Position numbers and translations under genes: made by a program
Assembly (NCBI GenBank): GCA_963797055.1
Contig: CAWCOD010000002.1
Location: 491,598-555,597, forward strand
Direction: 5' to 3'
Length of the DNA: 64,000 bases
From: an uncultured Holophagae bacterium
Lineage (GTDB): Bacteria; Acidobacteriota; Thermoanaerobaculia; Thermoanaerobaculales; Sulfomarinibacteraceae
In this document: piece after piece, positions 3,571 to 56,712 of the stretch
Position numbering within the stretch: position 1 is the first letter of the stretch
Layout of the letters: every line of letters begins with the position of its first letter
The notes under the pieces: model-generated
What the model saw: the letters and a program-made list of their open reading frames with translations, nothing else
Databases searched by the model: none
Told to the model about the DNA's origin: nothing

Positions 3571-3605
3571 GGTGGGAAGGTGGGAAGGTGAGAAGGAGAG
3601 GTGGG
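3571..3605. repeat. Tandem 8-mer array (GGTGRGAA), left arm of an inverted pair
   Basis: GGTGGGAAGGTGGGAAGGTGAGAAGGAGAGGTGGG. Its partner is at 3741..3774. Confidence 0.85.
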
Positions 3606-3740
3606 CGCGAACGCGAGTCCCCTGCGTGTTCGGCCTTCGGGGGGCCGCGTCGTCACGAAAGGCGATCCAGTCGCAGTTTTCTGGAGGTCCGGTCAGGGAC
3701 GCGCTGTGAAAACCAAGACCTTCAATCCGATCGCGTCGCC

Positions 3741-3774
3741 CTTTCACCTTCTCACCCCCTCACCTTCTCACCTT
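3741..3774. repeat. Tandem 8-mer array (TTCTCACC), right arm of an inverted pair
   Basis: CTTTCACCTTCTCACCCCCTCACCTTCTCACCTTG; the reverse complement is about 80% identical to 3571..3605. Confidence 0.85.
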
Positions 3775-3832
3775 GTGTCTCGGAGAGACCTGGCGCGCCC
3801 GGTCAACGCGCCCTCTGCCGTACCGGGCGAGT

Positions 3833-3985
3833 GGGGGCGCGCTGGGCGGGCGTGCCGTCCGCACACGCGTCGCGAACGCGGGGACCGGTGCCAGGCACCG
3901 TCGAAATCGAATCGGAGCACGAGATCGACACATCTGTGGCGGTGCCTGGCACCGACATGGAGATCGCGAATGCGATGGTGGCGGT
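3833..3985 (+). repeat. Dispersed repeat family A, copy 1
   Basis: GGGCGGGCGTGCCGTCC module, then GGTGCCAGGCACC (3887..3899), a 41-nt conserved spacer and GGTGCCTGGCACC (3941..3953), then GACATGGAGATCG. Overlaps the attH-like start. Confidence 0.85.
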
Positions 3986-5088
3986 ACGTTGGCAGATCGA
4001 TGCTCGCCGTGCTGCTCACGGTCAGCTGCACTACGGCCGTGGCCACGGGTGCGGAGGGGGTCGATTGGGAACGGATCACCGGTCCTCCGGAGATCGATCT
4101 TCCACGGGATCACGGGGCGCACCCGGAAGTCCAGACCGAGTGGTGGTATCTCACGGCGAACCTCACGGGCACCGATGGCAACCGGTACGGCGTTCAGGTG
4201 ACGTTCTTTCGGAGCGGCCTCGACGCCTCGCCGCCGCAGCCGGACTCATCCCCGCTGCGGGCGCGTCAGGCGCTTGCGGCGCATCTGGCGGTGGTGGATG
4301 TGGAGCGGGGCGCGTTCCGCCACGCCGAGCGGGTCCGCCGCGCCGACGGCGGATTTGCCGGCTTCGCCACCGACGACCTGGGAGTCTGGCTGGGGGACTG
4401 GCAGCTCGAGCGGCGGGCCGACGACACCCTCGTGGCCGCGGCTTCCGACCGGGCGTCAGGAATCGGCGTGGAGCTCGAGTACCGGCCCGCCAAGCCGCTG
4501 GTCCGCCAGGGTGTCGACGGTTACTCGCAGAAGGGCTCCGACCCGGGCAACGCCTCGGCTTACCTGAGCTGGACGCGGCTCGAGGTGTCCGGGAGGCTCG
4601 TCCTCGACGGGCGCGAGGTGGAGGTCTCCGGTGCCGGCTGGTTCGATCACGAGTGGGGCACGTCCCAGCTCGGTGACGGCGTCGCCGGCTGGGACTGGTT
4701 CAGCCTCCGTCTCGACGACGGCTCGGAGCTGATGGTCTACCGGCTGCGCCGGGAGGACGGCTCCCCCGACCCCTATTCCTCCGGCACCCTTGTCCGAACC
4801 GACGGAACCACCCGCAGGTTGGCAGTGGACCAGGTGGTGCTGGAACCGACGGGATCATGGATCAGCCCGGAGACCGGTGGGTCGTACCCGTCGGGCTGGC
4901 GCATCGGAGTGCCGTCAGAAGGTCTCGACCTGACCGTCGAGCCGCTGCTGCCCTCGGCCGAGCTCGACGGCCGCGCCTCCACCGGGGTTGTCTACTGGGA
5001 GGGTCCGGTTGCGGTCACCGGGTCGCACACCGGGGAGGGCTACACCGAGCTCACCGGCTACGCGGGGAGCCTCGCCGGACGGTTCTGA
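3970..5088 (+). CDS. AttH-like lipocalin / CrtC (hydroxyneurosporene synthase) family protein, secreted
   Basis: ORF 3601..5088. Only the part from ATG 3970 looks coding (signal-like MLAVLLTVSCTTAVATGA). Family motif DHGAHPEVQTEWWYLTANLTGTDGNRYGVQVTFFR. The start is uncertain because 3833..3985 is a dispersed repeat copy; the alternative start is ATG 4000. Confidence 0.8.
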   Translation: MRWWRYVGRSMLAVLLTVSCTTAVATGAEGVDWERITGPPEIDLPRDHGAHPEVQTEWWYLTANLTGTDGNRYGVQVTFFRSGLDASPPQPDSSPLRARQALAAHLAVVDVERGAFRHAERVRRADGGFAGFATDDLGVWLGDWQLERRADDTLVAAASDRASGIGVELEYRPAKPLVRQGVDGYSQKGSDPGNASAYLSWTRLEVSGRLVLDGREVEVSGAGWFDHEWGTSQLGDGVAGWDWFSLRLDDGSELMVYRLRREDGSPDPYSSGTLVRTDGTTRRLAVDQVVLEPTGSWISPETGGSYPSGWRIGVPSEGLDLTVEPLLPSAELDGRASTGVVYWEGPVAVTGSHTGEGYTELTGYAGSLAGRF

Positions 5089-5089
5089 G

Positions 5090-5154
5090 CCCCGCCCACC
5101 CCCGCGCGATCGAAGATCGAAGAACAAAGATCGAAGATCCCGCGCCCACCCGGG
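5090..5154. repeat. C-tract box / 7-mer array (GAAGATC, GAACAAA) / C-tract box
   Basis: CCCCGCCCACCCCC, then GATCGAAGATCGAAGAACAAAGATCGAAGATCC, then CGCGCCCACCCGGG. Confidence 0.9.
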
Positions 5155-5156
5155 AT

Positions 5157-5210
5157 GGGGGCGCAATGGGCGGGCGTGCCGTTCTGGAGCGCATCGGATA
5201 CGCGCGGGCC
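5157..5210 (+). repeat. Family A, 5' module only (truncated copy)
   Basis: GGGCGCAATGGGCGGGCGTGCCGTTCTGGAGCGCATCGGATACGCGCGGGCC matches 5313..5364 and then breaks into a CCCGAG hexamer array. Confidence 0.8.
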
Positions 5211-5312
5211 CTATCCCGAGCCCGAGCCCGAGCCCGTTACCGGCTCCGTGCCCGGGCCGGATCAAAACGAAGAACAAAGAACAAAGATCCCCCACCCACC
5301 CGGATCTTGAAA

Positions 5313-5490
5313 GGGCGCGATGGGCGGGCGTGCCGTCCTGGAGCGCATCGGATACGCGCGGGCCGGTGCCAGGCACCGTCGAAATCGAATCGGAGCACGA
5401 GATCGACACATCTGCGGCGGTGCCTGGCACCGACATGAAGATCGGAATGCGAAGGGTGGCAACCTGCCGCCGGCAGCGGTTGTGGCCGTG
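5313..5490 (+). repeat. Dispersed repeat family A, copy 2 (most complete)
   Basis: All modules present. Perfect 13-bp arms at 5365..5377 and 5419..5431. Tail GGGTGGCAACCTGCCGCCGGCAGCGGTTGTGGCC is shared with 18252.. and 44700..44757. Confidence 0.9.
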
Positions 5491-5721
5491 GGCGGCGGTC
5501 AATTCGCAATTCGCAATTCGGATTGGTGTTGGCGGCCCGGGGGCCTGGTTGGTGCCAATTTGACAACTGCCGTTCCGAGCCCCACATTGATCTCAATAAC
5601 ATCTTCGAGATGAATGGGTAAATTTCAGAAGCGTTGATGGGTCTCGCGTCAGGGGTATGGCTGTGGGGTTGTTTCTGCGATTGATTCCTACAAACAAACG
5701 CGCGAGCGACATTGGAGAACG

Positions 5722-5835
5722 GCGCCTCCCTCGGAGGTGCCTGGCATCCCGATTCGCCGAGGTCGATGAGCGACCTGGCTCGTGGGGGCGAATCGGCGTG
5801 CCTGGCACCCTCACGGGAAGCGCGGCGGGAACATC
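5722..5835 (+). repeat. Dispersed repeat family B, copy 1
   Basis: GGAGGTGCCTGGCATCCCGATTCGCC, a variable loop, then GGCGAATCGGCGTGCCTGGCACCCTCACGGGAAGCG. Confidence 0.85.
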
Positions 5836-5951
5836 GGCGCGTCGAAAATGACACGTCCTGCCTGCTCCGTCGCGCCAGTTCTCCCTTCGCGCTCCCCGAG
5901 GTTACTCGCGGCCGGTGGCCGCGCCCACTGCCGCATCGGGTGGGTGGGCGG

Positions 5952-5984
5952 CAACTTTCAACTTTCGACTTTTCAACTTCCAAC
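5952..5984. repeat. 7-mer array (CAACTTT-like) after GGGTGGGTGGGCGG
   Basis: Box at 5938..5951. The array ends 15 nt before ATG 6000. Confidence 0.9.
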
Positions 5985-5999
5985 TCGAGAGGGGAGATC

Positions 6000-7667
6000 A
6001 TGAAAACGAAACACGTCGTGTTGTTGGCGGCGATTATTGTGTGCTGCTCAGGATTGGCGATGGCCCAGACCGAGTGGGTCGAATACCCGGACAACCCGGT
6101 CCTTGGGCCGGGTGATCCGGGGGCGTGGGACTCAGCTTACCGGGAGGTCCTCAACGTCGTGTCCGACGGCTCGATGTATCACCTGTACTTCTGGGGCACC
6201 GATGACGAGGACAACATCCCGGCCGCCATCGGCCATGCCACCTCATCAGACGGCGTGACGTGGACCATTGATCCCAACAACCCGGTATTGACCACGGGGG
6301 CCGAGGGGGAGTGGGACGAAGGCGGCATCGTTAATTTCGCAGTGATTTACGACAACGCCGAGTTCCACGTGTGGTACGCAGGGTGGATCGACGACTGGAA
6401 CTCTGGCGTCGGGTATGCCACCTCGCCCGACGGCAGCACGTGGACGAAGTACTCGGGGAACCCGGTCCTCGGCCACGGGTCTGCCGGGTCGTTCGATGAG
6501 AGCGGCGTTTTCCCTCGCAGCGTGATTTTCGACGGGGGAACCTACCGGATGTGGTACACGGGAGTGGACGTGCCCGATTTCTTCTTTACGATCGGTTACG
6601 CCGAATCCCCCGACGGGATCTCGTGGACAAAGCACCCGGGCCCGGTCCTCGGACCGGGATCGGGTTGGGACTCCTGGGACGTGTGGGGTCCGTCGGTCAT
6701 CTTTGACGGGTCGATCTACCACATGTGGTACACGGGATCCGAGCTTGTCGAGGGCTGGGTGTTCCCCGGGGGAATCGGCTACGCCGCCTCGGCGGACGGC
6801 ATCGAGTGGACGAAGTACCCGGACAATCCGGTGTTCGTTTTAGACGAGAGGCTAGTGAGTTATGGGAGTGTCGTGTTTGACGGCTCGGCCTACCGGATGT
6901 GGTATATGGATGGGGTCGTCGAGGGACCACCGGCGGAGATCGCGTACGCCACCTCCGACTGTTGCGCCCCCCCGATTTTCCGGCAGACCATCCCAGCGGC
7001 GGCGCTGGCATCGGGCGCTCAGGGATCCTTCTACCAGACCGATTTGGACCTCAACAACGCCGGTGACCAGCCGGTGGAGTACGAGTTCTGGTGGCTGCCC
7101 CGGGGCGAGACCAACACCGAGCCGACCAGGTCGGAGACCTTCAGCCTCGGTGCGGGCATGAGCGTGCGCTACGCCAATGTGCTGTCCGAGGTCTTCGGCC
7201 TTGAGCCCAACTCCTTCGGGGCGCTGTCGATTCTGTCGTCGAGCCCGGATCTGCTGGCCATGAGCCGGACCTACAACAACCCCGAGGGCGAGGACGCGGG
7301 CACCTTCGGCCAGGCCATTCCGGCGGTGCCACCGAGCGACTTCATCCAGACCGGCGAGCGACGGAGAATCCTCTTCGCCAGCGAGCACGAGGACCTGCGG
7401 TTCAACGTGGGCTGCCAGAGCGGCAGCGGCGAAGGGACCATGATCGTCAACCTCGAGCTCTTCGATGACGAGGGCACGTCGTTGGAGCAGACCATGATGA
7501 TCCTCAGGGCCTGGGGCAACGACCAGCTCAACCGGATCTTCCAGGACTACATGCCGGTGAACGGCTACGTCGATGTCTGGACCACCTTGCAGAACAAGAG
7601 CTTCTACTGCTACGGATCGGTGCTCGACAACGTGACCAGTGATCCGACGACGGTGCTGCCGCAGTGA
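6000..7667 (+). CDS. Secreted GH43/GH130-like beta-propeller protein with conserved C-terminal domain of unknown function (paralog 1)
   Basis: ORF 5712..7667. ATG 6000 follows RBS GAGAGGGGAG and gives signal peptide [23 protein letters not shown]. Five to six blade repeats (DG..YHMWY ... IGYA.S.DG..WTK...NPVL). The C-terminal ~230 aa ([24 protein letters not shown] ... [16 protein letters not shown]) is shared with 8048..9717 and 18796..20439. Confidence 0.85.
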
Positions 7668-7880
7668 GCCAGGGAGCAGGGCAGCGCTCCCATCGGAGGC
7701 GCGGCGGGCAGTCCCGAGCTCGACCGAGGCCGACCAACGACCTGTCATCGTCGGAGGAGCGAAATCGCGGCGTGCCTGGCACCCTCATGGGAAGCGCGGC
7801 GGGAACATCGGCGCGACGAAAATGACACGTCCTGCCTGCTCGCGTCGCTGCCCGTTCTCCCTTCGCGCTCTCCGAGGTTG

Positions 7881-8000: not shown

Positions 8001-8032
8001 CAACTTTCAACTGTCAACTTTCAACTTCCAAC
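8001..8032. repeat. 7-mer array (CAACTTT-like) in the paralog-2 leader
   Basis: CAACTTTCAACTGTCAACTTTCAACTTCCAAC; homologous to 5952..5984. Confidence 0.9.
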
Positions 8033-8047: not shown

Positions 8048-9717
8048 ATGAACGCGACACGAGTGACGTTATTGGCGGTGATTCTGTGTGCTCATTGTCG
8101 CGGTGGCGTCGGCGCAGACCGAGTGGGTTGAAAATCCGGTCGATCCGGTGCTCGGGACGGGTGAGCCGGGGTCCTGGGACTACATCCGACTGCCGGCTGA
8201 GGTCGTCCTGGTTGACGGCACCTACCACCTCTTCTTCGGCGGTCAGCCGGAGGGTGACCGATCGCCTATTCGACGCTCTTCAGTTGGGGCACGCGACGTC
8301 GTCGGATGGTGTGACCTGGGAGATCGACCCGGCCAACCCGGTTCTGACTCTTGGAGGGGCGGGTGAATGGGACTCCGCGACCCTCCTGCCGGGAGCCATC
8401 GTCCACGATGGGAACGGATTTCACCTGTGGTACCACGGGAGCAACCCGACGGAGATACCTACCTCAGCGCGGTCGGTTATGCGACTTCGCCGGATGGCTC
8501 AAACTGGGTGAAACACGACGGCAACCCGATCATGGGCGAGGGACTGCCCGGGACCTACGACGACGGAGGTGTGCTGCCTCGCACGGTGATCGTCCGAGAC
8601 GGACTCTACCAGATGTGGTACACCGCGATTCATCGCTCGGACAACGAGTATGATTGGCGAATCGGCTACGCCGTCTCGGACGACGGTCTGGACTGGACCC
8701 GGCACCCTGTCCCGGTGCTGGAACCAGGTGTCGGGTGGGAGCAACTGATCGTCTTTGCTCCTCATGTGAGATTCGAGAGGTCGCAGTACCACATGTGGTA
8801 TAGCGGCTCCAATGGCGGGACCTTCAATATCGGATATGCTGTCTCGTCAGACGGCATCGAGTGGACCAGGTATTGGGACAACCCCGTCGTGTCCCGAGAC
8901 CCCTCGATTGCGGCCGAGCTCCCGTTGATTGTCCTCAACCCGGACACCCAGACATACGAGATGTGGTACCGAAACCTGGTCAATCTCAGCATCTACCGAG
9001 CCGTGTCGAACTGCTGTGCCACGGTGCATCTGTTGATCATTCCGGCCGCCGCAGTGGCCTCGGGCGCTCAAGGGTGCCTTCTACCAGACCGACGTGGACC
9101 TCAACAACGCCGGTGAGCAGCCGGTGGAGTACGAGTTTCTGTGGTTGCCCAGGGGCGAGACCAACACCGACCCGATGACCTCGGAGCCCTTCAGCCTCGG
9201 CGCTGGCATGAGCGTTCGGTACGCCAACGTGTTGTCCGAGGTCTTCGGTCTCGAGCCCAACGCCTTCGGTGCCGTCGGCATTCTTGTCCTCGAGCCCGGA
9301 TCTTCTGGCCATGAGCCGGACCTACAACATACCGAGGGTGACGGATCTGCCGGGACCTTCGGCCAGGCGATTCCGGCCATCCCACCGAGCGACTTCATCC
9401 AGACCGGAGAGCGGCGGCGGATCCTGTTCGCCAGCGAGAACGAGGATTTGCGGTTCAACGTGGGCTGTCAGAGCGGCGGTGACGGAACCATGGTGGTCAA
9501 CCTCGAGCTCTTCGACCACGAGGGCAGCTCGTTGGGGACAGAGATGATGATCCTCAGGGCCTGGGGCAACGACCAGATGAATCGGATCTTCCAGGACTAC
9601 ATGCCGGTGAACGGCTACGTGGACGTGTGGACCACAGACGCCGACAGAAGCTTCTACTGCTACGGCTCGGTGCTGGACAACGTGACCAGCGACCCGACGA
9701 CGATTTTGCCGCAGTGA
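8048..9717 (+). pseudogene. Frameshifted paralog 2 of the secreted beta-propeller / C-terminal-domain protein
   Basis: Homologous sequence is spread over ORFs 7639..8511, 8088..8366, 8367..9116 and 9094..9717. ATG 8048 follows the same leader and RBS as paralog 1. Frame changes near 8090, 8265, 8455 and 9080, plus a compensating pair near 9285 and 9335. Confidence 0.8.
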
Positions 9718-9737
9718 ACAAGGGAGCAGGGGGCAGG

Positions 9738-9925
9738 GCGCGTCCCTCGGAGGTGCCTGGCATCCCGATTCGCCGAGGTCGACAAGACCGATTCGTCCCG
9801 CTGGAGCGAATCGGCGTGCCTGGCATCCTCACGGGAAGCGCAGTCGGAGAATCGGCGCGTTGAAGTCGGTAGATCGAACCGAATGAGAGGAATTTGTGGT
9901 GCGGCCGTCTCGGCTGCAATCACAA
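9738..9925 (+). repeat. Dispersed repeat family B, copy 2 (long form)
   Basis: Same stem modules plus a 3' extension (GGAGAATCGGCGCGTTGAAGTCGG ... TTGTGGTGCGGCCGTCTCGGCTGCAAT). Confidence 0.9.
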
Positions 9926-9931
9926 CGGAAC

Positions 9932-9972
9932 CAAGATCGAAGAACAAAGATCGAAGATCCCCCACCCACCCA
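9932..9972. repeat. 7-mer array (GAAGATC/GAACAAA) plus CCCCCACCCACCC box
   Basis: Same array type as 5108..5140 and 5265..5303. Confidence 0.9.
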
Positions 9973-13655: not shown

Positions 13656-13706
13656 GTTAGCCCGCACTTCTCACCGAGTGTCTGCTGCGGGCGGCGATCG
13701 CGAATC
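13656..13706 (+). repeat. Dispersed repeat family C, copy 1
   Basis: CCCGCACTTCTCACCGAGTGTCTGCTGCGGGCGGCGATCGCG is the reverse complement of 45400..45441. Confidence 0.8.
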
Positions 13707-13844
13707 GTGCTCCTCAACGTAGTGCGACTACGCCTGCGTCGCCCGATCCGCTAAAAACCACATCTGACCACCCTCGCCGCCCCGTGACGAAACCCGGTGT
13801 GAAGTGCGGGTTAGAATGTTCCCCGCCCACCCGGAACGAAAAAG

Positions 13845-13990
13845 CGCAACAGGCGGGCGTGCCGTCCTCACGCGCGCCGCGAGCGCGCGGGCCGGTGCCA
13901 GGCACCGTCGAAATCGCATCGGAGCATGAGATCGATACATCTGCGGCGGTGCCTGGCACCGACATGGCGATCGGAATATGAGGTGGGCTC
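13845..13990 (+). repeat. Dispersed repeat family A, copy 3
   Basis: Arms at 13894..13906 and 13948..13960; same spacer with a few substitutions. Confidence 0.85.
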
Positions 13991-14082
13991 ACTCGGGGAG
14001 CGCCAGGGGGAGATGGGCGCGATGAAGTTCGGTCATCGATCTCATAGCGTTCGTCGCGCCCTGGCCGTCAGTGCGCTCCCCG

Positions 14083-14185
14083 TCGAGGATGCCAGGCACG
14101 CCGATTCGCCTGAAGTTCACGGGCACATCGACGCACGATGGCGAATCGGGATGCCAGGCACCTCCGAGGAACGCGCCCTCTTCCG
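14083..14185 (-). repeat. Dispersed repeat family B, copy 3 (inverted, short)
   Basis: Reverse complement of the core stems, with a different loop. Confidence 0.8.
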
Positions 14186-14258
14186 TTCCGGATGGGCAGG
14201 GGATAACGTTTCAACGTTGAACGTCTGCACCCTCCACTCTTTCCGCACCGTCCCCACC

Positions 14259-14284
14259 GGGCGGGCGGGCGGGCGGGTGGGTGG
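14259..14284 (+). other. Canonical G-quadruplex-forming tract in the PNP leader
   Basis: GGGCGGGCGGGCGGGCGGGTGGGTGG: six G3 tracts with 1-nt loops on the sense strand, ending about 22 nt before ATG 14307. Confidence 0.6.
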
Positions 14285-14306
14285 CGTCCTATGCTACATT
14301 TCGGCC

Positions 14307-15143
14307 ATGGGCACAGTCTTCGATCCCGATTCGCTGACGCAGATCGCCGCACTGTTCGGCGAGCGCTATCGTACGGGTACAGTCCGGGCGCTCATGGTGG
14401 CCGGTTCCGGACTCACCCTCGATGTCCCAGGCTGGGAGGCAACCGAGGAAGTCGAACTCGCGGATGTCTTCCCCTTCGAGATGCACGAACTCCTTGGTCA
14501 CCGTCAGACGGTCACCCTGTGGCGGCGGGGCTCGGAGACCATCCTCGCACTCAACGGGCGTTTCCACCTCTACCAGGGGTACACCCCGGAGCAGGTTGTG
14601 GCCCCGGTCAGACTCGCCGGATTGCTGGGCGCGGAGGTGATGATCGCCACCAACGCCACGGGCGCCCTCGATCCCGAGCTTCGGGCAGGGTCGCTGGTTG
14701 TGGTATCGGACCACATCAACCTGCAGGGGGCCAACCCGCTGGTGGGTGAGTGGGGGCTCGGATTTGGGCCGCAGTTTCCGGACATGAGTGAGTCCTATGA
14801 TCCCGAACTTCGTCGGCTGGCTGTCGCTGCGGCTGCGGAAAGCGGCTTCGAGGTTCGTGAGGGCGTGTACGCAGCCGTGCTCGGACCGTCCTTCGAGACA
14901 CCGGCCGAGGTCCGTATGCTCGGCCTCTTGGGTGGGACAGTGGTTGGCATGTCCACCGTGCCGGAGGTGATCGCCGCGAGGCAGATGGGGCTCAGGGTCT
15001 TGGTCATCTCACTGGCCACGAATCCGGGGGCGGGGCTGGTGGATAGGCCGTTGACCCACCTCGAGGTCATCGAAGCCGGTGAGGCTGCCAGGGAGAATCT
15101 CAAACACCTGCTCGGCCTCCTCGTTCAGAGAATCTTCGATTGA
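14307..15143 (+). CDS. Purine nucleoside phosphorylase (PNP/MTAP family)
   Basis: ORF 13926..15143. The 5' part is repeat sequence, and ATG 14307 gives MGTVFDPDSL. Motifs GRFHLYQGY, FPDMSESYD, GPSFETPAE and VGMSTVPEV. Confidence 0.9.
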   Translation: MGTVFDPDSLTQIAALFGERYRTGTVRALMVAGSGLTLDVPGWEATEEVELADVFPFEMHELLGHRQTVTLWRRGSETILALNGRFHLYQGYTPEQVVAPVRLAGLLGAEVMIATNATGALDPELRAGSLVVVSDHINLQGANPLVGEWGLGFGPQFPDMSESYDPELRRLAVAAAAESGFEVREGVYAAVLGPSFETPAEVRMLGLLGGTVVGMSTVPEVIAARQMGLRVLVISLATNPGAGLVDRPLTHLEVIEAGEAARENLKHLLGLLVQRIFD

Positions 15144-15246
15144 CGACGGGTTTTGCGTCGCGAGGGTCGAGTATCGAGTCGACCTCTTCTAAGCGAATCG
15201 GTCGAGTGGGGGAATGCACAACTCGTGATGTGTTATTAGGAGTAGG

Positions 15247-15900
15247 GTGGAGGTAGGGGTGTTTTTAGACGTTTTCCCAACCGGTCCGATTCAGGCCAAC
15301 TGCGTATTGATTGGTGACGAGAAGGCCGGGGTTCTGGCTGTCATCGACCCGGGCGAGGAGGCCGATCGGATCTGTGACCGCATCGCGGCCAGCGGGCTCG
15401 ACCCGGTCGTCGTACTCCACACCCACGGCCATGTGGATCATGCCGGCGGCACCGCCGAGTTGATGCGCCGACTGGGGGACGGAGTTCCCGTTGGCCTTCA
15501 TCCCGAGGAACTCGACCTGTACCGCGGGCTCGCCATGCAAGGGCGTCTCTTCGGTGTCGAGACTGAAACGCCGCCGCAGCCTACCAAGTGGTTGAAACAC
15601 GGCGACAGAATACCGGTGGGCGGGCTCGAGCTGGAGGTGCGGCACACCCCAGGTCACTCACCAGGTGGAGTGTCATTCGTGGTCCACGGGAACTCGCAAC
15701 CTATCGTGGTGGTGGGGGATCTGCTTTTCGCCGGGTCCATTGGCCGTACGGACCTGTTCGGCGGGTCGTATCACATTCTCGAGCGGTCAATCAGAGAGCA
15801 GATTTACGTGTTGCCGGACGACACCAGAGTGATCAGCGGTCACGGACCGGACACCACCGTCGGCCGCGAGAAGGCCGCAAATCCTTTTGTCAGGGGCTGA
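15247..15900 (+). CDS. MBL-fold metallo-hydrolase (glyoxalase II-like)
   Basis: 217-aa ORF with HTHGHVDHAGG (HxHxDH), then HTPGHSPGG and GDLLFAGSIGRTD. Confidence 0.9.
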   Translation: MEVGVFLDVFPTGPIQANCVLIGDEKAGVLAVIDPGEEADRICDRIAASGLDPVVVLHTHGHVDHAGGTAELMRRLGDGVPVGLHPEELDLYRGLAMQGRLFGVETETPPQPTKWLKHGDRIPVGGLELEVRHTPGHSPGGVSFVVHGNSQPIVVVGDLLFAGSIGRTDLFGGSYHILERSIREQIYVLPDDTRVISGHGPDTTVGREKAANPFVRG

Positions 15901-15903
15901 TCG

Positions 15904-15936
15904 GTCAAAAAACAGAGGAGTTTGCAGTTTTTTGAC
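15904..15936. terminator. AT-rich perfect hairpin after the MBL hydrolase gene (weak terminator candidate)
   Basis: GTCAAAAAAC, a 13-nt loop, then GTTTTTTGAC: a perfect 10-bp inverted repeat 4 nt after the stop at 15900. It lacks a GC-rich stem. Confidence 0.3.
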
Positions 15937-16067
15937 GGTCGTCACATTGCATCACGGTCGCAGTCTGGCAGAATGGCTGCGACCGCAGCGGCGAACCGCC
16001 GAATCGGCGAACTATCCACAGGACATTCCATTGACCGGGTGGTGCTCGGACGAAGGGAATCCGTCAA

Positions 16068-18134
16068 ATGTCAGTCAATAAAACATTTCGCATGGCAATT
16101 GCCGCAATTATGATCGTCGGCGGATTTTCCGGTGGGGACCTCCTCGCAGCGTCCCCGGCCGAGCGAATCTGGTCCCAGGCGCCGGCTTCATCCCTCGATC
16201 CCACAGCTGACAGGGCGATCATCCCGTTGAGATTTCAACCGGTCATCCTGGACCGTGCCGCCTTGGATGCCGAGTTGCGTCGAGCGCCAAACGAGATGGC
16301 TGAGAATGCCCAGGCCCTTGCCGTGGTGGTGCCTCTGCCCACCCCCGATGGTGGAATCGCGTACTTCAGGGTGGTGTCGTCGCCGATCATGGAGCCCGAG
16401 TTGGCCGCCCGGTATCCCCAGATTCAGACCTTCCGCGGCCAGGGGATCGACGATCCCAGCGCCACGGTGAGGATGGACCGCACCCTTCACGGATTCCACG
16501 CCATGGTGATGTCCTCCTCCGGGAGCTATTTTGTAGACCCCTACGCCAGGGGAGATGTGGACACCCACATCGTCTACTCCAGGTCCGATCTGGTGAATCC
16601 CCACGCAGGGGTCTTCAGCTGCGGCGTACCCTCTGACCAGGAGGGTGGCGGTGGCGAGGGAACCACTGAGGGCATGGAACTCTCAGGCGCATCGCTGAGG
16701 AGCTACCGGCTTGCCGTGGCGGCCACCGGGGAGTACACCGCCTTCCATGGTGGGACCGTTCCGGACGGCATGGCGGCCATCGTGACCGCGATCAACCGGG
16801 TCAACCAGATCTACGAGCGCGAAGTGGCGATTCGCATGATGTTGGTGGCCAACAATGACCTCGTGGTCTATACCAACGGTGCGAGCGATCCCTACTCCAA
16901 CTCCAACGGATACGCCATGCTCGGCCAGAATCAGAGCAATCTGGACGCCGTCATCGGCTCCGCCAACTACGACATGGGCCACGTCTTCTCCACCGGTGGT
17001 GGTGGCATCGCAAATCTTCGCGCGGTCTGCAACAACAGCTACAAGGCGCAGGGAGTCACCGGATTGCCGAGCCCCGTCGGCGATCCCTTCTACGTGGATT
17101 ATGTAGCCCACGAGATGGGCCACCAGTGGGGCGCCAACCACACCTTCAATGGTAATGAAGGCGGCGTGTGGTGGCGGCAACCGCAACCCGTCCACGGCCT
17201 ACGAGCCGGGCAGCGGATCAACCATCATGGCCTATGCCGGCCTCTGCGGCATCCCACAACACCCAGTACTTCAGCGACGACTATTTCCACGGAGCCAGTT
17301 TCTCGGAAATCGTCTCCTACAGTACGCGCGGGCGTCGGCAACAGCTGCGCTGCGGAGACAGCCACCGGCAACTCGCCGCCGCTCGTTGAGGCGGGTGACG
17401 CATTCACCATCCCGGTGTCGACCCCATTCGCGCTCTGCGGTTCGGCGGTGGACCCAGATGCCGATGTCCTGACCTACGGCTGGGAGGAGTTTGATCTCGG
17501 GCCCGCGGGTCATCCCAACACGCCGAGCGGAAACGCGCCGATCTTCAGGAGCTTCGACCCGGTGAACTCGCCAGAGCGGCTCTTTCCGAAGGCGTCCGAC
17601 ATCGTCAACAACGTGCAGACAAAGGGTGAAATCCTGCCGAGCTATGCCCGGAACCTGAACTTCCGATTGACCGCGCGGGACAACTTGTCGGGTGGCGGTG
17701 GGGTCGACTTCGACACCACCAGTCTCGCGGTCTCCGATGCCGGCGGCCCGTTCGTGGTGACCTCGCCGGACAGCGCCGTGACCTGGACCGGCGGCACCAC
17801 CCAAGTCGTGAGTTGGGACGTGGCCGGCACCGACCTGGCGCCCATCAGCTGTGACAGCGTGGATATCGCCCTGTCGCTGGACGGCGGCTGGAACTTCCCG
17901 CTGGTCCTGCTCAGCGACACTCCGAATGACGGCTCTCAGGCGGTGATGATGCCCGACCTCCAATCCGCCACGAGTCGCGTCCGGGTGAGCTGCCACGGCA
18001 ATGTCTTCTTCGATATCTCCAATACCAACTTCACGTTGACCGGCTCGGGCGCCATGTTTTTTCCGAGGGCACCGATGGCTGCGGCGGCGGCTGGGGGGCG
18101 TGGACCTCGGTCGTTCAGTAGGGCAAGGCAGTAG
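16068..18134 (+). CDS. Secreted reprolysin-like (M12B-type) zinc metalloprotease with an internally frame-scrambled segment
   Basis: Signal-like N-terminus [19 protein letters not shown]. Zinc motif [13 protein letters not shown]. Between about 17160 and 17335 the family-like sequence moves through the other two frames ([28 protein letters not shown] in ORF 17149; [21 protein letters not shown] in ORF 17168) and then returns. A further possible shift lies at the T6 run near 18055. Confidence 0.8.
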
Positions 18135-18196: not shown

Positions 18197-18247
18197 TTAA
18201 GTTGAAAGTTGAACGTTAAACGTTGAACGTTCCCACCCTCCCTCCCG
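18197..18247. repeat. 7-mer array (GTTGAAC/GTTAAAC) plus CCCACCCTCCCTCCCGG
   Basis: TTAAGTTGAAAGTTGAACGTTAAACGTTGAACGTT followed by the C-tract box. Confidence 0.85.
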
Positions 18248-18251
18248 GATC

Positions 18252-18425
18252 GTGAGAGGGGGCAACCTGCCGGCGGCAGCGATTGTGGCCTGGGCCGGGA
18301 GGGATGTGGCGGGAGTTGATCCGGCCACTGGCCACTCGCTGGTGACGGCTGGTCACCGCGGCCGGCTTGTCACGGCGAAGCCCGAAGGGCGGAGCCGGAA
18401 GGCCGCGAGTAACCTCGGGGAGCGC
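18252..18425 (+). repeat. Dispersed repeat family F, copy 1
   Basis: GGGGGCAACCTGCCGGCGGCAGCGATTGTGGCC ... CTGGTGACGGCTGGTCACCGCGGCC ... GGCCGCGAGTAACCTCGGGGAGCGC. Confidence 0.8.
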
Positions 18426-18435
18426 GGTTGGGAGA

Positions 18436-18640
18436 AGGCGCGTCCCTCGGAGGTGCCTGGCATCCCGATTCGCCAACGTCGACAAACCGACTCGTCCCGT
18501 TGGAGCGAATCGGCGTGCCTGGCATCCTCACGGGAAGCGTGGCTGGAGAATCGGCGCGTTGAAATCGGCACCTGAAACCGAACGAGAGGGGCATTGTGGC
18601 GGAGCCGTCCCGGCTGGGATTCTGGCCGCGATTGAGCGCG
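18436..18640 (+). repeat. Dispersed repeat family B, copy 4
   Basis: About 107 nt identical to 24744..24850. Confidence 0.9.
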
Positions 18641-18795
18641 CGATGAGATTCCGCTGATGCTGTCATCCTGAGCGAGCGAAGCGACGGAGGATGTGAGTTG
18701 GAGGATCGATCCGCAGGAAAACCGCAGCCTAACCTCAGGCAACTCGGCTTCCGGGGCGCCACCTTTTAGACGAGAGAGTCCAAAAGGAGGAAGTC

Positions 18796-20439
18796 ATGGG
18801 TGGAAGACGAGTTGTGGTGGTGTTGGCGATTGGGGTGTGCTGTGCGGGAATCGCAATGGGGCAAACGGACTGGGTCGACAACCCGGACAATCCGGTCATC
18901 GAGTCGGGTGAGTCCGGATCGTGGAATGCAGGCGGGAACTGGGGCACGGCCGCCTTCTTTGACGGATCGACCTACCACATGTGGTTCACCGGGGAGGACC
19001 AAAACGGGTATTGGTCCGGCGTCGGCCACGCCACCTCACCCGATGGCGTCGAATGGACCATGGATCCGGCCAACCCCGTAGTTTCCGCCGGCGAATCCGG
19101 GGAGTGGGACGACTCCTACGTTATTTCGGGGGCGGTGATCCACGACGGGACCCAGTTCCACATGTGGTACTCGGGCTCCGGCGGTGCCGAGGAATCGCTC
19201 GGCTACGCCACTTCGCCCGACGGCAGTATGTGGACCAAACACGACGGCAATCCTGTCATGGATGCTGGGGCGTCCGGCACGTGGGACGACTTATGGGTCG
19301 GGCCCTCCTCGGTCATTGCAGACGGCGAGAACCTCCAGATGTGGTATTGGGGCTCCAACGGGTCTGTCGGGAGTATCGGGTATGCCGAATCGCCGGACGG
19401 GATCGATTGGACCAAGCGCCAGGAGCCGGTCCTCGAACCGCAGGAAATCCCCGGGGGGGCCTGGGACGCGCAGACTCTCTACGGCCCGCTCGTCATTTTC
19501 AACCCACTCAACCCACCCATGTACCAGATGTGGTACGGAGGGCACGATTCGGACAACCCCCTTGTCGGCTATGCCTTCTCGAGCGACGGCATCGAGTGGA
19601 CGCGACACCGTGACAATCCGGTCATCGAAGCCGGCCATCCCGTTGTTCTCTTTGACGGGTCCGACTATCACATGTGGTACGCCTACAAAGATGGTGGCTG
19701 GCAAATGTCCTACGCCACCTCTGACTGCTGCCCCGGTGTGGCTGGTCTGACGCACATGCAGACCATCCCGGCTGCGGCGGTGGCCTCGGGCGCCGAGGGG
19801 GCCTTCTACCAGACCGACGTAGACCTCAACAACCCCGGTGAGCAGCCGACGGAGTACAAGTTCATGTGGCTTCCCCGCGGTGAAACCAACTCCGACCCCA
19901 TGGCGTCGGAGTCCTTCAGTCTCGGCGCCGGCATGAGCGTGCGCTATGCCAATGTGCTGTCCGAGGTCTTCGGGCTCGAGCCCAACTCCCTCGGGGCGTT
20001 GTCCATTCTGTCATCGAGCCCCGATCTGCTGGCCATGAGCAGGACCTACAACAGTCCCGAGGGCGAGGAGGCGGGCACCTTTGGCCAGGCCATTCCAGCG
20101 GTTGCGCCCGTTGATTTCATTACAACCGATGAGAGGCGGAGGATTCTCTTCGCCAGCGAAAACGATGATCTGCGTTTCAACGTGGGCTGCCAAAACGGCG
20201 GAGATCTCAGCATGGTGGTCAACCTCGAGCTCTTCGACTCCGAGGGCTCGTCGTTGGAAAGCACAATCATGCTCCTTAGGGCTTGGAGCAACGATCAGTT
20301 CAACCGTGTGTTTGGTGATTACCAGCCGGTCAACGGCTATGTCGATGTGTGGACCACAAACGCTGGCAAGAGCTTCTATTGCTACGGATCGGTGCTGGAC
20401 AACGTGACCAGCGACCCGACGACGATTTTGCCGCAATGA
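18796..20439 (+). CDS. Secreted GH43/GH130-like beta-propeller protein with conserved C-terminal domain (paralog 3)
   Basis: 547-aa ORF after RBS AAAGGAGGAAG. Signal peptide MGGRRVVVVLAIGVCCAGIAMGQ. Same blade motif (STYHMWFTG, VGHATSPDGVEWT). The C-terminal domain is nearly identical in parts to paralog 1 ([39 protein letters not shown]). Confidence 0.9.
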   Translation: MGGRRVVVVLAIGVCCAGIAMGQTDWVDNPDNPVIESGESGSWNAGGNWGTAAFFDGSTYHMWFTGEDQNGYWSGVGHATSPDGVEWTMDPANPVVSAGESGEWDDSYVISGAVIHDGTQFHMWYSGSGGAEESLGYATSPDGSMWTKHDGNPVMDAGASGTWDDLWVGPSSVIADGENLQMWYWGSNGSVGSIGYAESPDGIDWTKRQEPVLEPQEIPGGAWDAQTLYGPLVIFNPLNPPMYQMWYGGHDSDNPLVGYAFSSDGIEWTRHRDNPVIEAGHPVVLFDGSDYHMWYAYKDGGWQMSYATSDCCPGVAGLTHMQTIPAAAVASGAEGAFYQTDVDLNNPGEQPTEYKFMWLPRGETNSDPMASESFSLGAGMSVRYANVLSEVFGLEPNSLGALSILSSSPDLLAMSRTYNSPEGEEAGTFGQAIPAVAPVDFITTDERRRILFASENDDLRFNVGCQNGGDLSMVVNLELFDSEGSSLESTIMLLRAWSNDQFNRVFGDYQPVNGYVDVWTTNAGKSFYCYGSVLDNVTSDPTTILPQ

Positions 20440-20610
20440 TAGCGAGCGAGCAGGGAGCAGGAGGCAGGGAACAGCGCTCACAAACCCGGTGAGATATGCG
20501 GGCTAGAGGGCCGACCCCGGGAGATAAACCCTCGGGCCGAATCGAGCCTTCGGAAAGCGGCCGTGACGGCGGCACTCTAACGCCGCGCCTGGTAGGTGGC
20601 TGGAGGTCCC

Positions 20611-23600
20611 ATGGCCAGCGTGATCCAATTCCGCACACGACGTTCGCAGGTCGGCGTGGCAACAACGCGCCGGGTTGTGGGTCGTGCGGCGACGCCATAC
20701 AATGATCCCAGAGTGTCCGTTCAACTTGCGACGATCATCCAGAACGGTGAGCCGTTTCTCATCGGAGAATGGCTTTTGGAGCCGATGCTCAACCGGCTGA
20801 CGCGGGGCGAGACCACGGTCCAGCTCGAGCTCAAGGCCATGGACGTGCTGCTTTGCCTCGCCGAGCATGCCGGGGAGGTGATGGGCAAGCACGATCTCCT
20901 CGATGAGGTGTGGCAGACCGAGTTCGTCTCCGACAACACCCTGCAGCGGAGGATCGCTGAGCTGAGAGAGGCTTTCGGCGACAACGCCTCAAGGCCCTGC
21001 TACATCGAGACCATTCGCAAGCGCGGCTACCGCCTGATTGCCGAGGTGGTTGCGGTGACCACGGCCGGCGAGATCGCGATGGCGATCCCCGAGACACCCG
21101 TCCCTCCTGACGAGGAGCGCAACCCGTACCCGGGTCTGGCTGCCTTCACCGAGATCGACGCCGACCGATTCTTCGGCCGGACCATCGAGGTCGCGGCTCT
21201 GTGGCGCAAAATCACCTCTCGGCGCCTGCTGGCCGTGATCGGTCCTTCGGGCATCGGCAAGAGCTCACTGCTGCGCGCCGGAGTCGCCTCCCGAGCCCCG
21301 CCCGGCTGGCGGGTGGTGGTCTTCACCCCGGGCGAAGTGCCGGTGCTGTCGCTGGCACGGGCTTTAGCTCCCGACCACTCCGGCGATCCGGACGCTGTGG
21401 CGCGACTGGTGGGTTTCACCGATCCGGACACCGCTTTGGCCGTAATCTCCAGGTGGCGGGGGAACTTCCAGCAAGCGGTTCTCGTGGTCGACCAGTTCGA
21501 GGAGCTATTCACTCTCAGCACGCCCGAAGTGCAGACGGGCTTCATCGAACTGCTGCGACGGCTGGTGGACGCTGCCGACGTGCACGTTGTGCTGGTTATG
21601 CGGGACGACTTCGTCTATCAATGCCAGCCGTTCTCGCAGATCACACCGATTTTCAAAGACCTGACACCGCTGGGCCCACCCAGCGGCGAGGCTTTGCGGC
21701 GGGCCCTCAGGGAGCCGGCGGCGCGGCAGCTCTACCGGTTCGAAAGCGAACGCCTGGTGGACAGAATGGTCGCAGAAGTCGAGGACGAGCGGGGTGCCCT
21801 GCCCATGCTCGCCTTTGCCGTGCATCGACTGTGGGAGGAGCGGGATTGCGAGCAGCGGGTCCTCACGGAGGAGGCGTACAACCGCATCGGCGGTGTGTCC
21901 GGCGCCCTGGCCCTTCATGCCGAATCGACCCTTGACCGGATCGGCGCGGAGCGGTTGCCCATCGTACGCGAGGTCTTCCGCAATCTGGTCACCGCAGAGG
22001 GTACCCGGGCGGTCCGCGTGGTGGGCGAACTTCTGTCCGTCTTCGATGTGGGTGACCGTGAATCCGCCGCCGAGACCCTGGGTGAACTCATCGACGCCCG
22101 TCTCTTGACCTCCTTTGAGGGGGAAACGGATGAGATTGTTGACGTTCGGCAGAGCAACCGGGTCGAGATCATCCACGAATCGCTGTTGCGTGCATGGCCG
22201 AGACTGGTGCGCTGGCAAACCCGGGACGCAGACGCCGCGCAGCTCCGGGACCAACTTCGCCAGGCGGCGCGTGTATGGCACGAACACGGACGCCACGAAG
22301 ACAGGTTGTGGATCGGAACCGCGTTTCGAGAGTTCCAGCTGTGGAGGGAGAGCTACCCGGGTGGTTTGACCGAGACCGAAGAAGGCTTTTCCGAAGCGAT
22401 GAAATTACACGCGAACCGCCGCAGACGCAGACGCCGACTCGCGGCCACGGCGTCATTCGCCATTCTACTGGTTGTTCTCGCTGTCGTCGGCCTGTCCCGT
22501 CAGCGGGCGGTCACCGAGGCCAGACGTGCGGAAGCGGCCAAGCTGTTGGCGATTGGCCAGAGCGAGATCGACATCTATCCGACCGCCGCCCTGGCGTGGG
22601 CCATGGCCAGTCTCGGGCTGGCTGACACCCAGGAGGGGCGATTGCTGGCGATGCGCGCCATACAAAAAGGTCCTCCGGTATCGGTGTGTCCTCGAGATTC
22701 AATTCGGTTGTTGGGTATCGTAGATCTCGCCATCAGCCCGAACGGCACGTGGATCGTCGGCAGCGGAGATCGCCTGGAACTCAGACGCCGTGACGGCAGT
22801 GAGCCGATCCTTGTGTCCCACCCAGAAGAGGCGATGGAGTCTGGCCGGACGTACGATGAGGTTCTGGCGGGATTCATTTCCGACGCGGTCTTGCTTACCG
22901 AAAAACGAGGGGAACACTACTGGTGGGCGATACCTCAGGTGGAGCGACCCATGCAGCTCCGTCGCGATAGGGGATCACTTGGCGAGGTACAGAGCGACGG
23001 GTACTTCAGTTTCTCGAAAGCCGGTGATCAGGTCTCAATCCATCGGTGGCCTTCGGACGGGGGCCCCGGGCGATTGGTGGGGTCCATGGATCCATGGGGT
23101 CCAAGTGATATTGACGACACAGGGTCAATGATGGCGTACGCCAGAGAAAATCTCCTTTTCGTGCGGTCACTGGAAGATTGGGACCGTCCGCCGCTGCGGA
23201 TCGGGGAGCACGAACACTCCGTGCAGTTCGTGGCTTTTCATCCTGACGGAGACAACCTGGCTGTCGCGGACAATTCAGGCGCGGTGAGGCTTTGGTCCAT
23301 ATCCAGCGGCCCGCCACAGCTGTTGCGCTCGATCACTCTCGGTGGTGTCCCTCACGGAACACTCGTTTACAGCCCCACGGGAAGGTGGCTCGCCGGGGCA
23401 GACAACGAAAACGGAACACAGCTGTTCGACCTGGCGGCACCCAATGGATCAGCCCCTCTGATGTTGAGAAGGTCGGACGAATCGGCGGTGGTGTCTCTCG
23501 ACTTTCACCCCGATGAGAACTGGTTGGTCACCGCGAATTTCAACAGTTTTGGGTTCTGGCCTTTAACTCACAGATTCGCCACGGTTCTGGACCAAGCCGG

Positions 23601-24684: not shown

Positions 24685-24743
24685 CCGTCTGCCGGCCCAA
24701 AGCGAAGTGCGGAATCCTCATCCCCCACCCATCCGCGAGGGGA

Positions 24744-24985
24744 GAAGGCGCGTCCCTCGGAGGTGCCTGGCATCCCGATTCGCCAACGTCGACAAACCGA
24801 CTCGTCCCGTTGGAGCGAATCGGCGTGCCTGGCATCCTCACGGGAAGCCCGCTCGGAGAATCTGCGCGTTGAAGTCGGCAGATTGAACCCAACGAGGTGG
24901 ATTTTGTGGCGCAGGCCTCTGGCCTGCATTCACTCAATCAATCAACGCCAGAATTGCAGGCGGGACGCCTGCGCTACAAAGGCGT
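24744..24985 (+). repeat. Dispersed repeat family B, copy 5
   Basis: Identical core to copy 4; the 3' extension diverges. Confidence 0.9.
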
Positions 24986-32265: not shown

Positions 32266-32307
32266 AAATTCGGAATTCGAAATTCGGAATTCGGCCCACC
32301 CGCCCGG
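32266..32307. repeat. 7-mer array (AATTCGG/AATTCGA) plus CCCACCCGCCCGG box
   Basis: AAATTCGGAATTCGAAATTCGGAATTCGG followed by CCCACCCGCCCGG. Confidence 0.9.
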
Positions 32308-35137: not shown

Positions 35138-35242
35138 AGGGAGAGGTCGCGATGATCGGACGTGCCGTCCTCGAGAGTCAAAAGTCGAAATTCGAAAGTC
35201 CCCGCCCTCCCACCCGAGGAGTGGGCGCAACGGGCGGGCGTG

Positions 35243-44384: not shown

Positions 44385-44545
44385 GCTTTGTGGTGCGGCC
44401 GTCTCGGCTGTAATTCTGGCCTTGACTGAATGGGCGAATGCAGGCCGGAGGCCTGCTCCACAATGGCTCTTCTCGTTGGGTTCAATCTACCGACTTCAAC
44501 GCGCCGATTCTCCGACTGCGCTTCCCGTCGATCCGATTTTGACGG
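44385..44545 (-). repeat. Family B 3'-extension module fused to a family A arm
   Basis: TTGTGGTGCGGCCGTCTCGGCTGTAAT ... GCGCCGATTCTCCGACTGCGCTTCCCG, then GACGGTGCCTGGCACCGG. Confidence 0.75.
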
Positions 44546-44589
44546 TGCCTGGCACCGGCCCGGGGGTATGGAAAGACCCTCTTGATTTC

Positions 44590-49307: not shown

Positions 49308-49339
49308 GGGACCTGGCACGGGACCCGACGCGCCCATCT

Positions 49340-49530
49340 CCCAACCGCGCTCCCCGCGGTTGCCACCCTCGCATTCCGATCTCCATGTCGGTGCCAGGCA
49401 CCGCCGCAGATGTAGCGACCTCGTACTCCGATTCGATTTCGACGGTGCCTGGCACCGGCCCGCGCGTATTGGATGCGCTCCAGAACAGCACGCCCGCCCA
49501 TCGCGCCCCTCACTCCTGGTGGGTGGGGGA
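49340..49530 (-). repeat. Dispersed repeat family A, copy 4 (inverted)
   Basis: Reverse complement of the 5313..5490 consensus. Arms at 49390..49402 and 49444..49456. Confidence 0.85.
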
Positions 49531-49624
49531 TCTTCGTCCTCCATTCGGTAACGGCAACGATAACGGGCTCGGGCTCGGAGACGGAGTCGGGGTTGGGCCG
49601 TATACACTTTCAACACCATCTACA

Positions 49625-56435: not shown

Positions 56436-56645
56436 TCAGCGCGCCCCTCTCCCCGCAGCGCTCCCCGAGGTTGCCACCCTCGCATTCCGATCTCCATGTC
56501 GGTGCCAGGCACCGCCGCAGATGTAGCGACCTCGTGCTCCGATTCGATTTCGACGGTGCCTGGCACCGGCCCGCGCGTATTGGATGCGCTCCAGAACAGC
56601 ACGCCCGCCCATCGCGCCCTCCTCCGATCCGGGTGGGCGGGGGAA
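56436..56645 (-). repeat. Dispersed repeat family A, copy 5 (inverted)
   Basis: Near-identical to 49340..49530 over about 190 nt. Arms at 56501..56513 and 56555..56567. Confidence 0.9.
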
Positions 56646-56712
56646 TCTGCAATCTGCAATCTGCAATCTGCAATCTGCAATCTGCAATTCGCAATTCGCA
56701 ATTCGTAATTCG
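56629..56712. repeat. CCGGGTGGGCGGGGG plus the longest array (AATCTGC x5, then AATTCGC/AATTCGT x4)
   Basis: Box at 56629..56643; about 68 nt of 7-mer repeats, ending about 18 nt from the stop of the EAL gene. Confidence 0.92.

Follow-up and report, generated by a model that had tools for sequence, protein, structure and literature searches.

The repeats closest to the element described here belong to two published systems in which short palindromes are found together with transposases. In the first, repetitive extragenic palindromes (REPs) are arranged as inverted doublets, the REPINs, and occur with REP-associated tyrosine transposases, the RAYTs (Nunvar 2010, PMC2817692; Bertels & Rainey 2011, PMC3116915). 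In the second, described under the names TIRYT and 'TIRtron' (Di Nocera 2013, PMC3733652), the published motif is GGGGWSAS (PMC3733652; PMC6006769). The TIRYTs probably correspond to TnpA-Y1 subclass 2.1, whose signatures are NHxH in the HuH motif and Y[IV]xLNP in the Y motif (PMC6006769). Quentin 2018 (PMC6006769) reports no REP-like sequences for this subclass, and the 16-mers flanking Group-1 RAYT genes have only about 12 occurrences genome-wide (Bertels 2017, PMC5581495). Here we describe family A, a group of intergenic repeats in a 64,000-nt stretch of the chromosome of an uncultured Holophagae bacterium (assembly GCA_963797055.1, contig CAWCOD010000002.1, positions 491,598 to 555,597), hereafter called the window. 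Each full copy is built around two inverted copies of a 13-nt palindrome, GGTGCCWGGCACC, and most likely represents a small mobile element of non-coding DNA, not a gene or an RNA. We consider it probable that family A is a REPIN-like non-autonomous element set in mosaic repeats, with a hairpin that is the putative substrate of a Group-1 RAYT encoded elsewhere in the genome.

The doublet and its copies in the window

The invariant core of family A is a 67-nt doublet, GGTGCCAGGCACC - 41 nt - GGTGCCTGGCACC, in which each 13-mer is a perfect 6+1+6 palindrome, with ...GCGGGCC before the 13-mer and GACATGG after it. The five copies and two fragments listed in the initial annotation were all recovered, every one of them between genes (Table 1), and in each of the five copies the two 13-mers are indeed exact reverse complements with 41 nt between them. 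The order of modules said to be common to all copies was found in full in copies 2, 4 and 5, while copies 1 and 3 have a divergent second left module (73% identity). The full copies can be aligned over about 150-210 nt, similarity to the right of the doublet stopping after about 30-45 nt, and they lie on both strands, including between divergently transcribed genes. Near-identity of the two inverted copies, 4 and 5, was likewise borne out, with 97% identity over 180 nt and similarity that reaches about 215 nt in a longer alignment; the other copies are 81-93% identical among themselves. Family A is not an artefact, because its copies diverge from one another by 3-15% and related ones are present in assemblies made independently, and the assembly duplication that had been considered possible can thus be set aside.

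The palindrome GGTGCCWGGCACC occurs 11 times exactly in the window. When up to one mismatch is allowed there are 20 matches, against 0.14 expected, a number reached in none of 100 shuffles, and all 20 are intergenic on an open reading frame (ORF) map drawn from codon bias and Pfam. As single-stranded DNA the doublet is predicted to form a hairpin of 15-18 bp (-27 to -29 kcal/mol, z -3.5 to -5.4), strong on either strand, and the modules around it are predicted not to pair with each other. An intrinsic terminator is not supported, no T-run standing behind this G+C-rich hairpin; the sequence that comes next is GACATGGAGATCGG on one strand, and on the opposite strand it is GGCCCGCGCG. A sigma-54 promoter was also considered and rejected: TGGCAC lies inside the 13-mer, but inspection by eye showed no TTGC at -12 spacing, either in the window or in other species.

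Occurrence beyond this genome

The pattern 13-mer-N30-55-13-mer was sought in one genome per species and matched more than 101 stretches, often several per genome, whereas fewer than 0.1 chance matches would be expected in the collection by our own estimate (26 specified bases, even at 65% G+C). The matches come from Acidobacteriota, Planctomycetota, Actinomycetota, Bacillota (bacilli and clostridia), Alpha-, Beta- and Gammaproteobacteria, Desulfobacterota, Spirochaetota and Bdellovibrionota, and at least eight phyla have genomes with multiple copies of the doublet. Among the 101 loci listed, which span 35 to 76% G+C, no palindrome of the GGGGTC type was found, and all-against-all clustering of neighbouring genes brought out only generic ABC ATPases as common to them. 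Across phyla it is the 13-mer alone that is conserved; its flanks are species-specific, and in about half of the cases they lengthen each 13-mer into a longer perfect palindrome. Relatives of family A are present in uncultured Holophagae metagenome-assembled genomes (MAGs), next to which the organism is placed by homologues of the window's PNP (92-93% amino-acid identity), and in one Thermoanaerobaculia MAG. Phage origin was rejected, the doublet having 0 matches in viral contigs.

Two of these loci have a peculiar arrangement. In L016, a MAG from the Gammaproteobacteria, the 13-mer occurs 13 times within 8 kb, GGGGACTGTCCCC being found within the spacer of one doublet, and three GGTGCCWGGCACC units (500-545, 820-875) stand in frame in an APH-family (SrkA-like) kinase gene, where the insertions encode VPGT repeats and add EEVPGTEAVPGTFGTVPGTS to the protein. 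A Planctomycetota MAG contig (L052) has nine exact 13-mers and further near-exact ones at 520-1090, head-to-tail with alternating 57- and 67-nt spacing; this array is a tandemly amplified cluster and does not consist of dispersed doublets.

RAYT-type transposases bracketed by the 13-mer

Searches with tblastn and profiles found Y1 proteins in two of the 101 listed doublet loci, one from Metabacillus arenae (L072), where the ORF was found between two 13-mer clusters on reading this Bacillota locus, and one from an uncultured actinobacterium (L025). In both, all 13-mers of the locus are arranged as doublets on both sides of the Y1 gene and at most 125 nt from it; two such sandwiches among 101 loci of up to 8 kb are very unlikely to arise by chance (about 0.04 expected by our estimate). 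The Metabacillus Y1/HUH protein (184 amino acids) has the motifs NHLH and YIHLNP, and the actinobacterial one has NHVH, YIDLNP and a C-terminal helix-turn-helix (HTH), an HTH_17 tail. Both match Pfam Y1_Tnp with E about 1e-12, and in NCBIfam both score highest against REP_Tyr_transpos, with 71 and 66 bits, short of the cut-off of 80. The motifs of the two proteins are those of TnpA-Y1 subclass 2.1, that is, of Bertels Group 1.

Sister RAYTs of these proteins are bracketed in the same way by other palindromes. Doublets of GGGGTCWGACCCC surround P0011, P0139, P0136, P0130 and P0134, in Rubeoparvulum, a Thermoleophilia MAG and further metagenomic and other assemblies, and GGGGACWGTCCCC brackets P0202, a protein of Pseudoduganella lurida; the doublets stand on both sides of the gene, with about 67 nt from centre to centre. 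Both GGGGTCWGACCCC and GGGGACWGTCCCC fit the published GGGGWSAS, whereas the core found in the window, GGTGCCWG (GGTGCCWGGCACC), does not. In one actinobacterial clade the stem flanks, CAACTTTGCTTT / AAAGCAAAGTTG, are constant while the core passes from GGGGTCWGACCCC (L197) through the hybrid GGGGCCAGGCACC (L189-192) to GGTGCCWGGCACC (L025), and a second, decayed RAYT in the Metabacillus locus comes with the further variants GGTACCWGGTACC and GGTTCCTGGAACC. Because the stem flanks stay while the core changes by way of a hybrid, and because sister RAYTs are bracketed alike, GGTGCCWGGCACC is a single variant within a class of palindromes, GGNNNC-W-GNNNCC, that is linked to these enzymes, with GGGGTC, GGGGAC, GGGGCC/GGCACC, GGTGCC, GGTACC and GGTTCC as its variants.

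A bolder form of this view, which we put forward tentatively as something that may or may not hold, is that GGTGCCWGGCACC is a 'specificity allele' of a pan-bacterial class, in which the hairpin apex would be recognised by Group-1 RAYTs and a few cores would recur across phyla and switch via hybrids. An alignment of 10 RAYTs inspected by eye, too few sequences for the purpose, gave no convincing residues that track the core type. Text searches of the literature for GGTGCCWGGCACC or its 11-nt core returned almost exclusively eukaryotic primers and similar matches and no bacterial paper with the palindrome as a sequence string, and none was found for GGGGTCWGACCCC either; the 13-mer is not listed in the supplements of PMC3733652 and PMC6006769.

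Mosaic structure and turnover of the intergenic regions

Family A is a mosaic and not one fixed unit, since the modules besides the doublet are separate repeats that are also found without it. The left module (CCCACCC...GGGCGGGCGTGCCGTCC) has nine copies in the window, most of them without a doublet, and the end of the fragment at 5157-5210 coincides exactly with the outer edge of the expected first 13-mer; a search for 'empty' junctions, with the left module joined directly to the right one, found none. A second doublet family, B, occurs at nine places in the window and has 13-mers with one mismatch, GGTGCCTGGCATC / CGTGCCTGGCAYC. The intergenic regions of the window are mosaics like the bacterial interspersed mosaic elements (BIMEs) of Escherichia coli, because modules occur independently, fragments fuse with one another and family B is also present.

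Two syntenic Holophagae contigs, L200 and L201, allowed a comparison site by site. Both lack copy 2 in the orthologous region between genes downstream of attH; there a C-rich/G-rich hairpin lies between inverted heptamer arrays, and in the window the body of family A takes the place of the 3' heptamer arm. Copy 3 is found at the orthologous site in L200 and is absent from L201, where other repeats sit. The copy is 100% identical between the window and L200, within a region (13819-18122 of the window, 9516-13805 of L200) in which patches of 99-100% identity (13819-14218, and 15919-16818 inside the reprolysin-like gene) alternate with about 80-85% elsewhere. Selection on copy 3 was considered and rejected as the cause of this identity, as the patchwork of 99-100% and about 82% also covers coding sequence; the identity reflects recombination or a strain mosaic, and the patchwork has the pattern of recent recombination between lineages or of a strain-mosaic assembly.

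Table 1. Positions of the repeats in the window (nt; strand given where assigned)
Feature	Position	Strand	Details
Family A copy 1	3813..3985	+	13-mers 3887-3899, 3941-3953
Family A copy 2 (the copy first flagged)	5291..5494	+	13-mers 5365-5377, 5419-5431
Family A copy 3	13820..14027	+	13-mers 13894-13906, 13948-13960; between divergent SMC and PNP genes
Family A copy 4	49329..49540	-	13-mers 49390-49402, 49444-49456
Family A copy 5	56436..56650	-	13-mers 56501-56513, 56555-56567; adjoins (AATCTGC)n heptamer array
Family A fragment	5137..5210	+	C-rich/G-rich hairpin module and left modules only; without 13-mers
Family A fragment	44529..44569	-	one 13-mer (44544-44556), 15 nt of spacer and GGCCCG flank; fused to family B piece 44412-44528
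Family B reference copy	18430..18616	+	degenerate 13-mers GGTGCCTGGCATC ... CGTGCCTGGCATC
Family B, other copies	5714-5847, 7768-7821, 9737-9917, 24740-24926, 56285-56400		
Family B, other copies	14072-14184, 35367-35542, 44412-44528	-	
Hairpin-like module, copies 1-5	3813-3860, 5137-5184, 5291-5338, 13820-13867, 18236-18283		
Hairpin-like module, copies 6-9	35123-35170, 35201-35248, 54788-54835, 54875-54922		
Period-7 arrays	963-993, 5108-5139, 5500-5520, 5952-5985, 8001-8032, 9928-9959, 18201-18231, 32266-32294		
Period-7 arrays	35087-35117, 39855-39876, 39922-39955, 46967-47011, 49639-49671, 54754-54784, 56644-56712		

What family A may be

Among the natures proposed for family A in the initial annotation, which also thought of a miniature transposable element bearing inverted repeats (MITE) and of a multicopy structured small RNA, it is the REP-like DNA element that is supported: the doublet of inverted palindromes is extragenic, over-represented and hairpin-forming, and its 13-mer brackets RAYT-type Y1 genes elsewhere. 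The enzyme acting on this hairpin would be a domesticated IS200-like protein of the Y1/HUH kind, a Bertels Group 1 RAYT (TnpA-Y1 subclass 2.1, or 'TIRYT'), whose gene would stand once or twice elsewhere in the genome. What it would recognise is the 13-nt palindrome at the apex. Acting on single-stranded DNA, for instance at the replication fork, it would cut the hairpin at its foot, and the doublet would be copied or moved to further intergenic sites, the neighbouring modules then being shuffled through recombination between copies. We infer the presence of such a RAYT in this genome, its binding and cleavage of this hairpin, and the origin of the copies through the mobility that it would confer.

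Several results weigh against this interpretation. Neither tblastn nor a profile search found a Y1 transposase gene in the 64-kb window, and Pfam found no transposase among its 20 large ORFs, so that the earlier statement that no transposase is present there has been borne out for Y1 types and for these ORFs. The link of the GGTGCC core to RAYTs comes from two genomes only. In addition, 80 metagenomic loci with longer Group-1 RAYTs that have a C-terminal HTH contain neither type of palindrome, and the link is therefore clade-specific and not general. The papers on RAYTs and TIRYTs consulted here report no biochemical test of a subclass 2.1 or Group-1 RAYT. The canonical 5' GT[AG]G is absent from the foot of the hairpin, where neither GTAG nor GTGG is found. 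No clean empty site or target-site duplication was seen in the comparison with relatives, and in the one informative case the element replaces other sequence. Finally, the core is constant across phyla, unlike the species-specific canonical REPs, which could instead mean that a conserved host protein is involved.

The last point leads to an alternative that we regard as unlikely, namely that the 13-mer is the site of a conserved dimeric DNA-binding protein (nucleoid-associated, regulatory, or only the HTH tail of the transposase-like protein). The repeats would then owe their spread to recombination or gene conversion and not to Y1-mediated transposition, and their retention to a role in regulation or in organising the chromosome. 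A perfect 6+1+6 palindrome is typical of dimer binding sites, its invariance extends over phyla of 35 to 76% G+C, and the HTH of the actinobacterial RAYT would suit such a role; the shuffling of modules is also what recombination would give, and copy 1 lies immediately 5' of a start codon. However, no candidate protein was found, the widely shared neighbours in the 101 listed loci being generic ABC ATPases, and the patchy, multicopy distribution of the doublet resembles that of a selfish element. The in-frame insertions in the kinase gene are hard to reconcile with regulatory sites, and the bracketing of RAYT genes by matching core variants points to co-evolution of enzyme and substrate.

Less probable still is that family A acts as RNA, either as a multicopy structured small RNA or as a cis-acting hairpin for mRNA stability, termination or translation of neighbouring genes. 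Rfam gave 0 matches at the gathering score on the whole window, and a permissive search of 5080-5760 returned only sub-threshold, chance-level hairpins of miRNA-like type. The hairpin is strong on either strand, as noted above, and a G-U/G-T pair lengthens its stem on one strand only in 13 of 14 variants (U-A in the remaining one); the spacer keeps its 41-nt length and conserved positions even in divergent relatives, and the doublet of copy 1 ends 5 nt ahead of a probable Shine-Dalgarno sequence, all of which would agree with a function in RNA. Against this, the interior of the spacer shows no compensatory change across the 14 variants (1 of 19 predicted pairs shows one), no T-run follows, and the copies face either way and are found 5' of genes, 3' of genes and in divergent intergenic regions, with conservation across phyla limited to the 13-mer and to no RNA-sized unit. 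A classical MITE, that is, a DDE-type insertion sequence that has suffered an internal deletion, bears terminal inverted repeats and depends for its mobility on a full-length one elsewhere, we hold to be very improbable. A multicopy intergenic element of 150-200 nt with inverted 13-mers and two near-identical copies would at first sight suit this description, but the 13-mers are internal instead of terminal and are themselves palindromic, and the sequences outside the doublet are independent modules. No direct duplication was seen at the boundaries of copies 4 and 5, or at those of copy 2 when compared with relatives, no related DDE insertion sequence was seen, and the only transposase found beside the 13-mers is of the Y1/HUH type. 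A REPIN-like element remains the explanation that we favour.

Other repeats and genes of the window

The window is a stretch of ordinary bacterial chromosome with 61-68% G+C, and its genes encode MacB/FtsX, attH/CrtC-like, SMC, PNP, reprolysin-like peptidase, STAND-WD40 NTPase, PFOR, MoxR, sulfatase, DNA polymerase III delta', SSF transporter, EAL-protoglobin and GcvP proteins. The initial annotation had copy 1 overlap the start codon of the attH-like gene, and this is plausible: a probable start (ATG 3971), with GGAG (probable Shine-Dalgarno sequence) at 3959-3962 and an N-terminus resembling a signal peptide, lies entirely inside the right module of copy 1. The longest ORFs of the attH-like (3601-5088), PNP (13926-15143) and SSF (49214-51250) genes begin inside or upstream of family A copies. 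Their homologues and Pfam domains start 120-220 codons further downstream, so that automatic calls of these three genes would gain N-terminal extensions derived from the repeats. Pfam gave no matches for 10 spurious ORFs across repeats.

A hairpin-like module, CCCACCCRCCCGG - loop - GGGCGGGCGTGCC, has nine copies. Its resemblance to the C-rich/G-rich REPs of acidobacterial Y1 transposases, e.g., GGTGCCCCATCC...GGGTGGGG (Quentin 2018, Table S1, PMC6006769), suggests that there may be a second REP system in this genome. Many short tandem arrays with a period of 7 (AATCTGC, AATTCGC, GATCGAA, CAACTTT, GTTGAAC, ATTCAGA and others) are found chiefly within intergenic regions or next to them, and several directly adjoin the C-rich hairpin module beside family A. 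Two intergenic sites far from each other (13661-13697 and 45405-45441) share a stretch of 37 nt, inverted in one relative to the other and with 100% identity, that bears no relation to family A or B.

Three paralogous beta-propeller proteins with weak GH130/GH32 matches and internal repeats of about 180 nt are encoded at 5712-7667, 8088-9717 and 18796-20439, the middle one apparently split over 2-3 ORFs, possibly through a frameshift or as a pseudogene. A segment of 6.1 kb (18617-24739) with a glycoside-hydrolase-like beta-propeller paralogue and a 1362-amino-acid Trans_reg_C-nSTAND1-WD40 NTPase is absent from the syntenic regions of L200 and L201, where only one copy of family B is found. In the window, two family B copies in direct orientation (18430-18616 and 24740-24926, with 95% identity over 141 nt) stand on either side of it, an arrangement suggesting that it was gained or lost by recombination between these repeats.

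Significance and comparison with known systems

For the window itself, the recognition of family A accounts for a large share of its unusually long, repeat-filled intergenic regions, and it carries a warning for annotation, three long ORFs owing their N-terminal extensions to read-through of repeats. For the field, the fixed cores provide a simple sequence tag by which such elements can be located in any genome. Published work has left the Group-1 or subclass 2.1 RAYTs without REPs and with only a loose GGGGWSAS inverted-repeat motif; a 13-mer that is identical in at least eight phyla, forms REPIN-like doublets, brackets the genes and grades into GGGGWSAS offers a concrete, testable substrate for this widespread and uncharacterised HUH family. 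Group-1 RAYTs are the largest of the RAYT groups, and if the palindromes do form an apical specificity class, these enzymes do have cognate REPIN-like populations, the determinant of recognition is apical and not a 5' guide tetranucleotide, and the code that relates enzyme and substrate in a domesticated transposase family becomes readable.

With REPINs, family A shares the two inverted short palindromes, the short spacer and the long hairpin, as well as its extragenic position, its over-representation and the presence of several related families in one genome; in L072 and L025 the units also bracket a single- or low-copy Y1/HUH gene, in a layout like that of a REPtron. It differs from REPINs in that the 5' GT[AG]G foot is lacking and conservation lies at the apex of the hairpin instead of its foot, in that one and the same 13-mer core recurs in many phyla, canonical REPs being specific to a species, and in that the enzymes associated with the 13-mer are of Group 1 (subclass 2.1), the RAYTs associated with REPINs being those of Groups 2 and 3. 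The TIRYTs come near in another respect: the transposases flanked by the 13-mer in other genomes carry subclass 2.1 motifs, with a C-terminal HTH in the actinobacterial clade, GGGGTCWGACCCC or GGGGACWGTCCCC, both in agreement with GGGGWSAS, flank their sisters, and TIRYT repeats also form dimers and clusters of moderate abundance. The core of the window, GGTGCCWGGCACC, falls outside that motif, and the window, with 11 exact 13-mers in 64 kb, is dense in comparison with the roughly 12 16-mers that Bertels 2017 counted genome-wide. No description was found of the constancy of the core across phyla and of its grading into the GGGGWSAS type. Like the Rickettsia palindromic elements and other REPs inside genes, the three in-frame 13-mers of the APH-family kinase gene have entered coding sequence, but such in-gene copies were seen in L016 only and the copies of the window are all extragenic. 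The BIMEs of E. coli are unrelated in sequence, and tandem arrays of heptamers are not among their features; they resemble the intergenic regions of the window in being clusters of a few REP types and short linker modules in variable combinations, the corresponding units here being the doublet, family B, the C-rich/G-rich hairpin module and the heptamer arrays.

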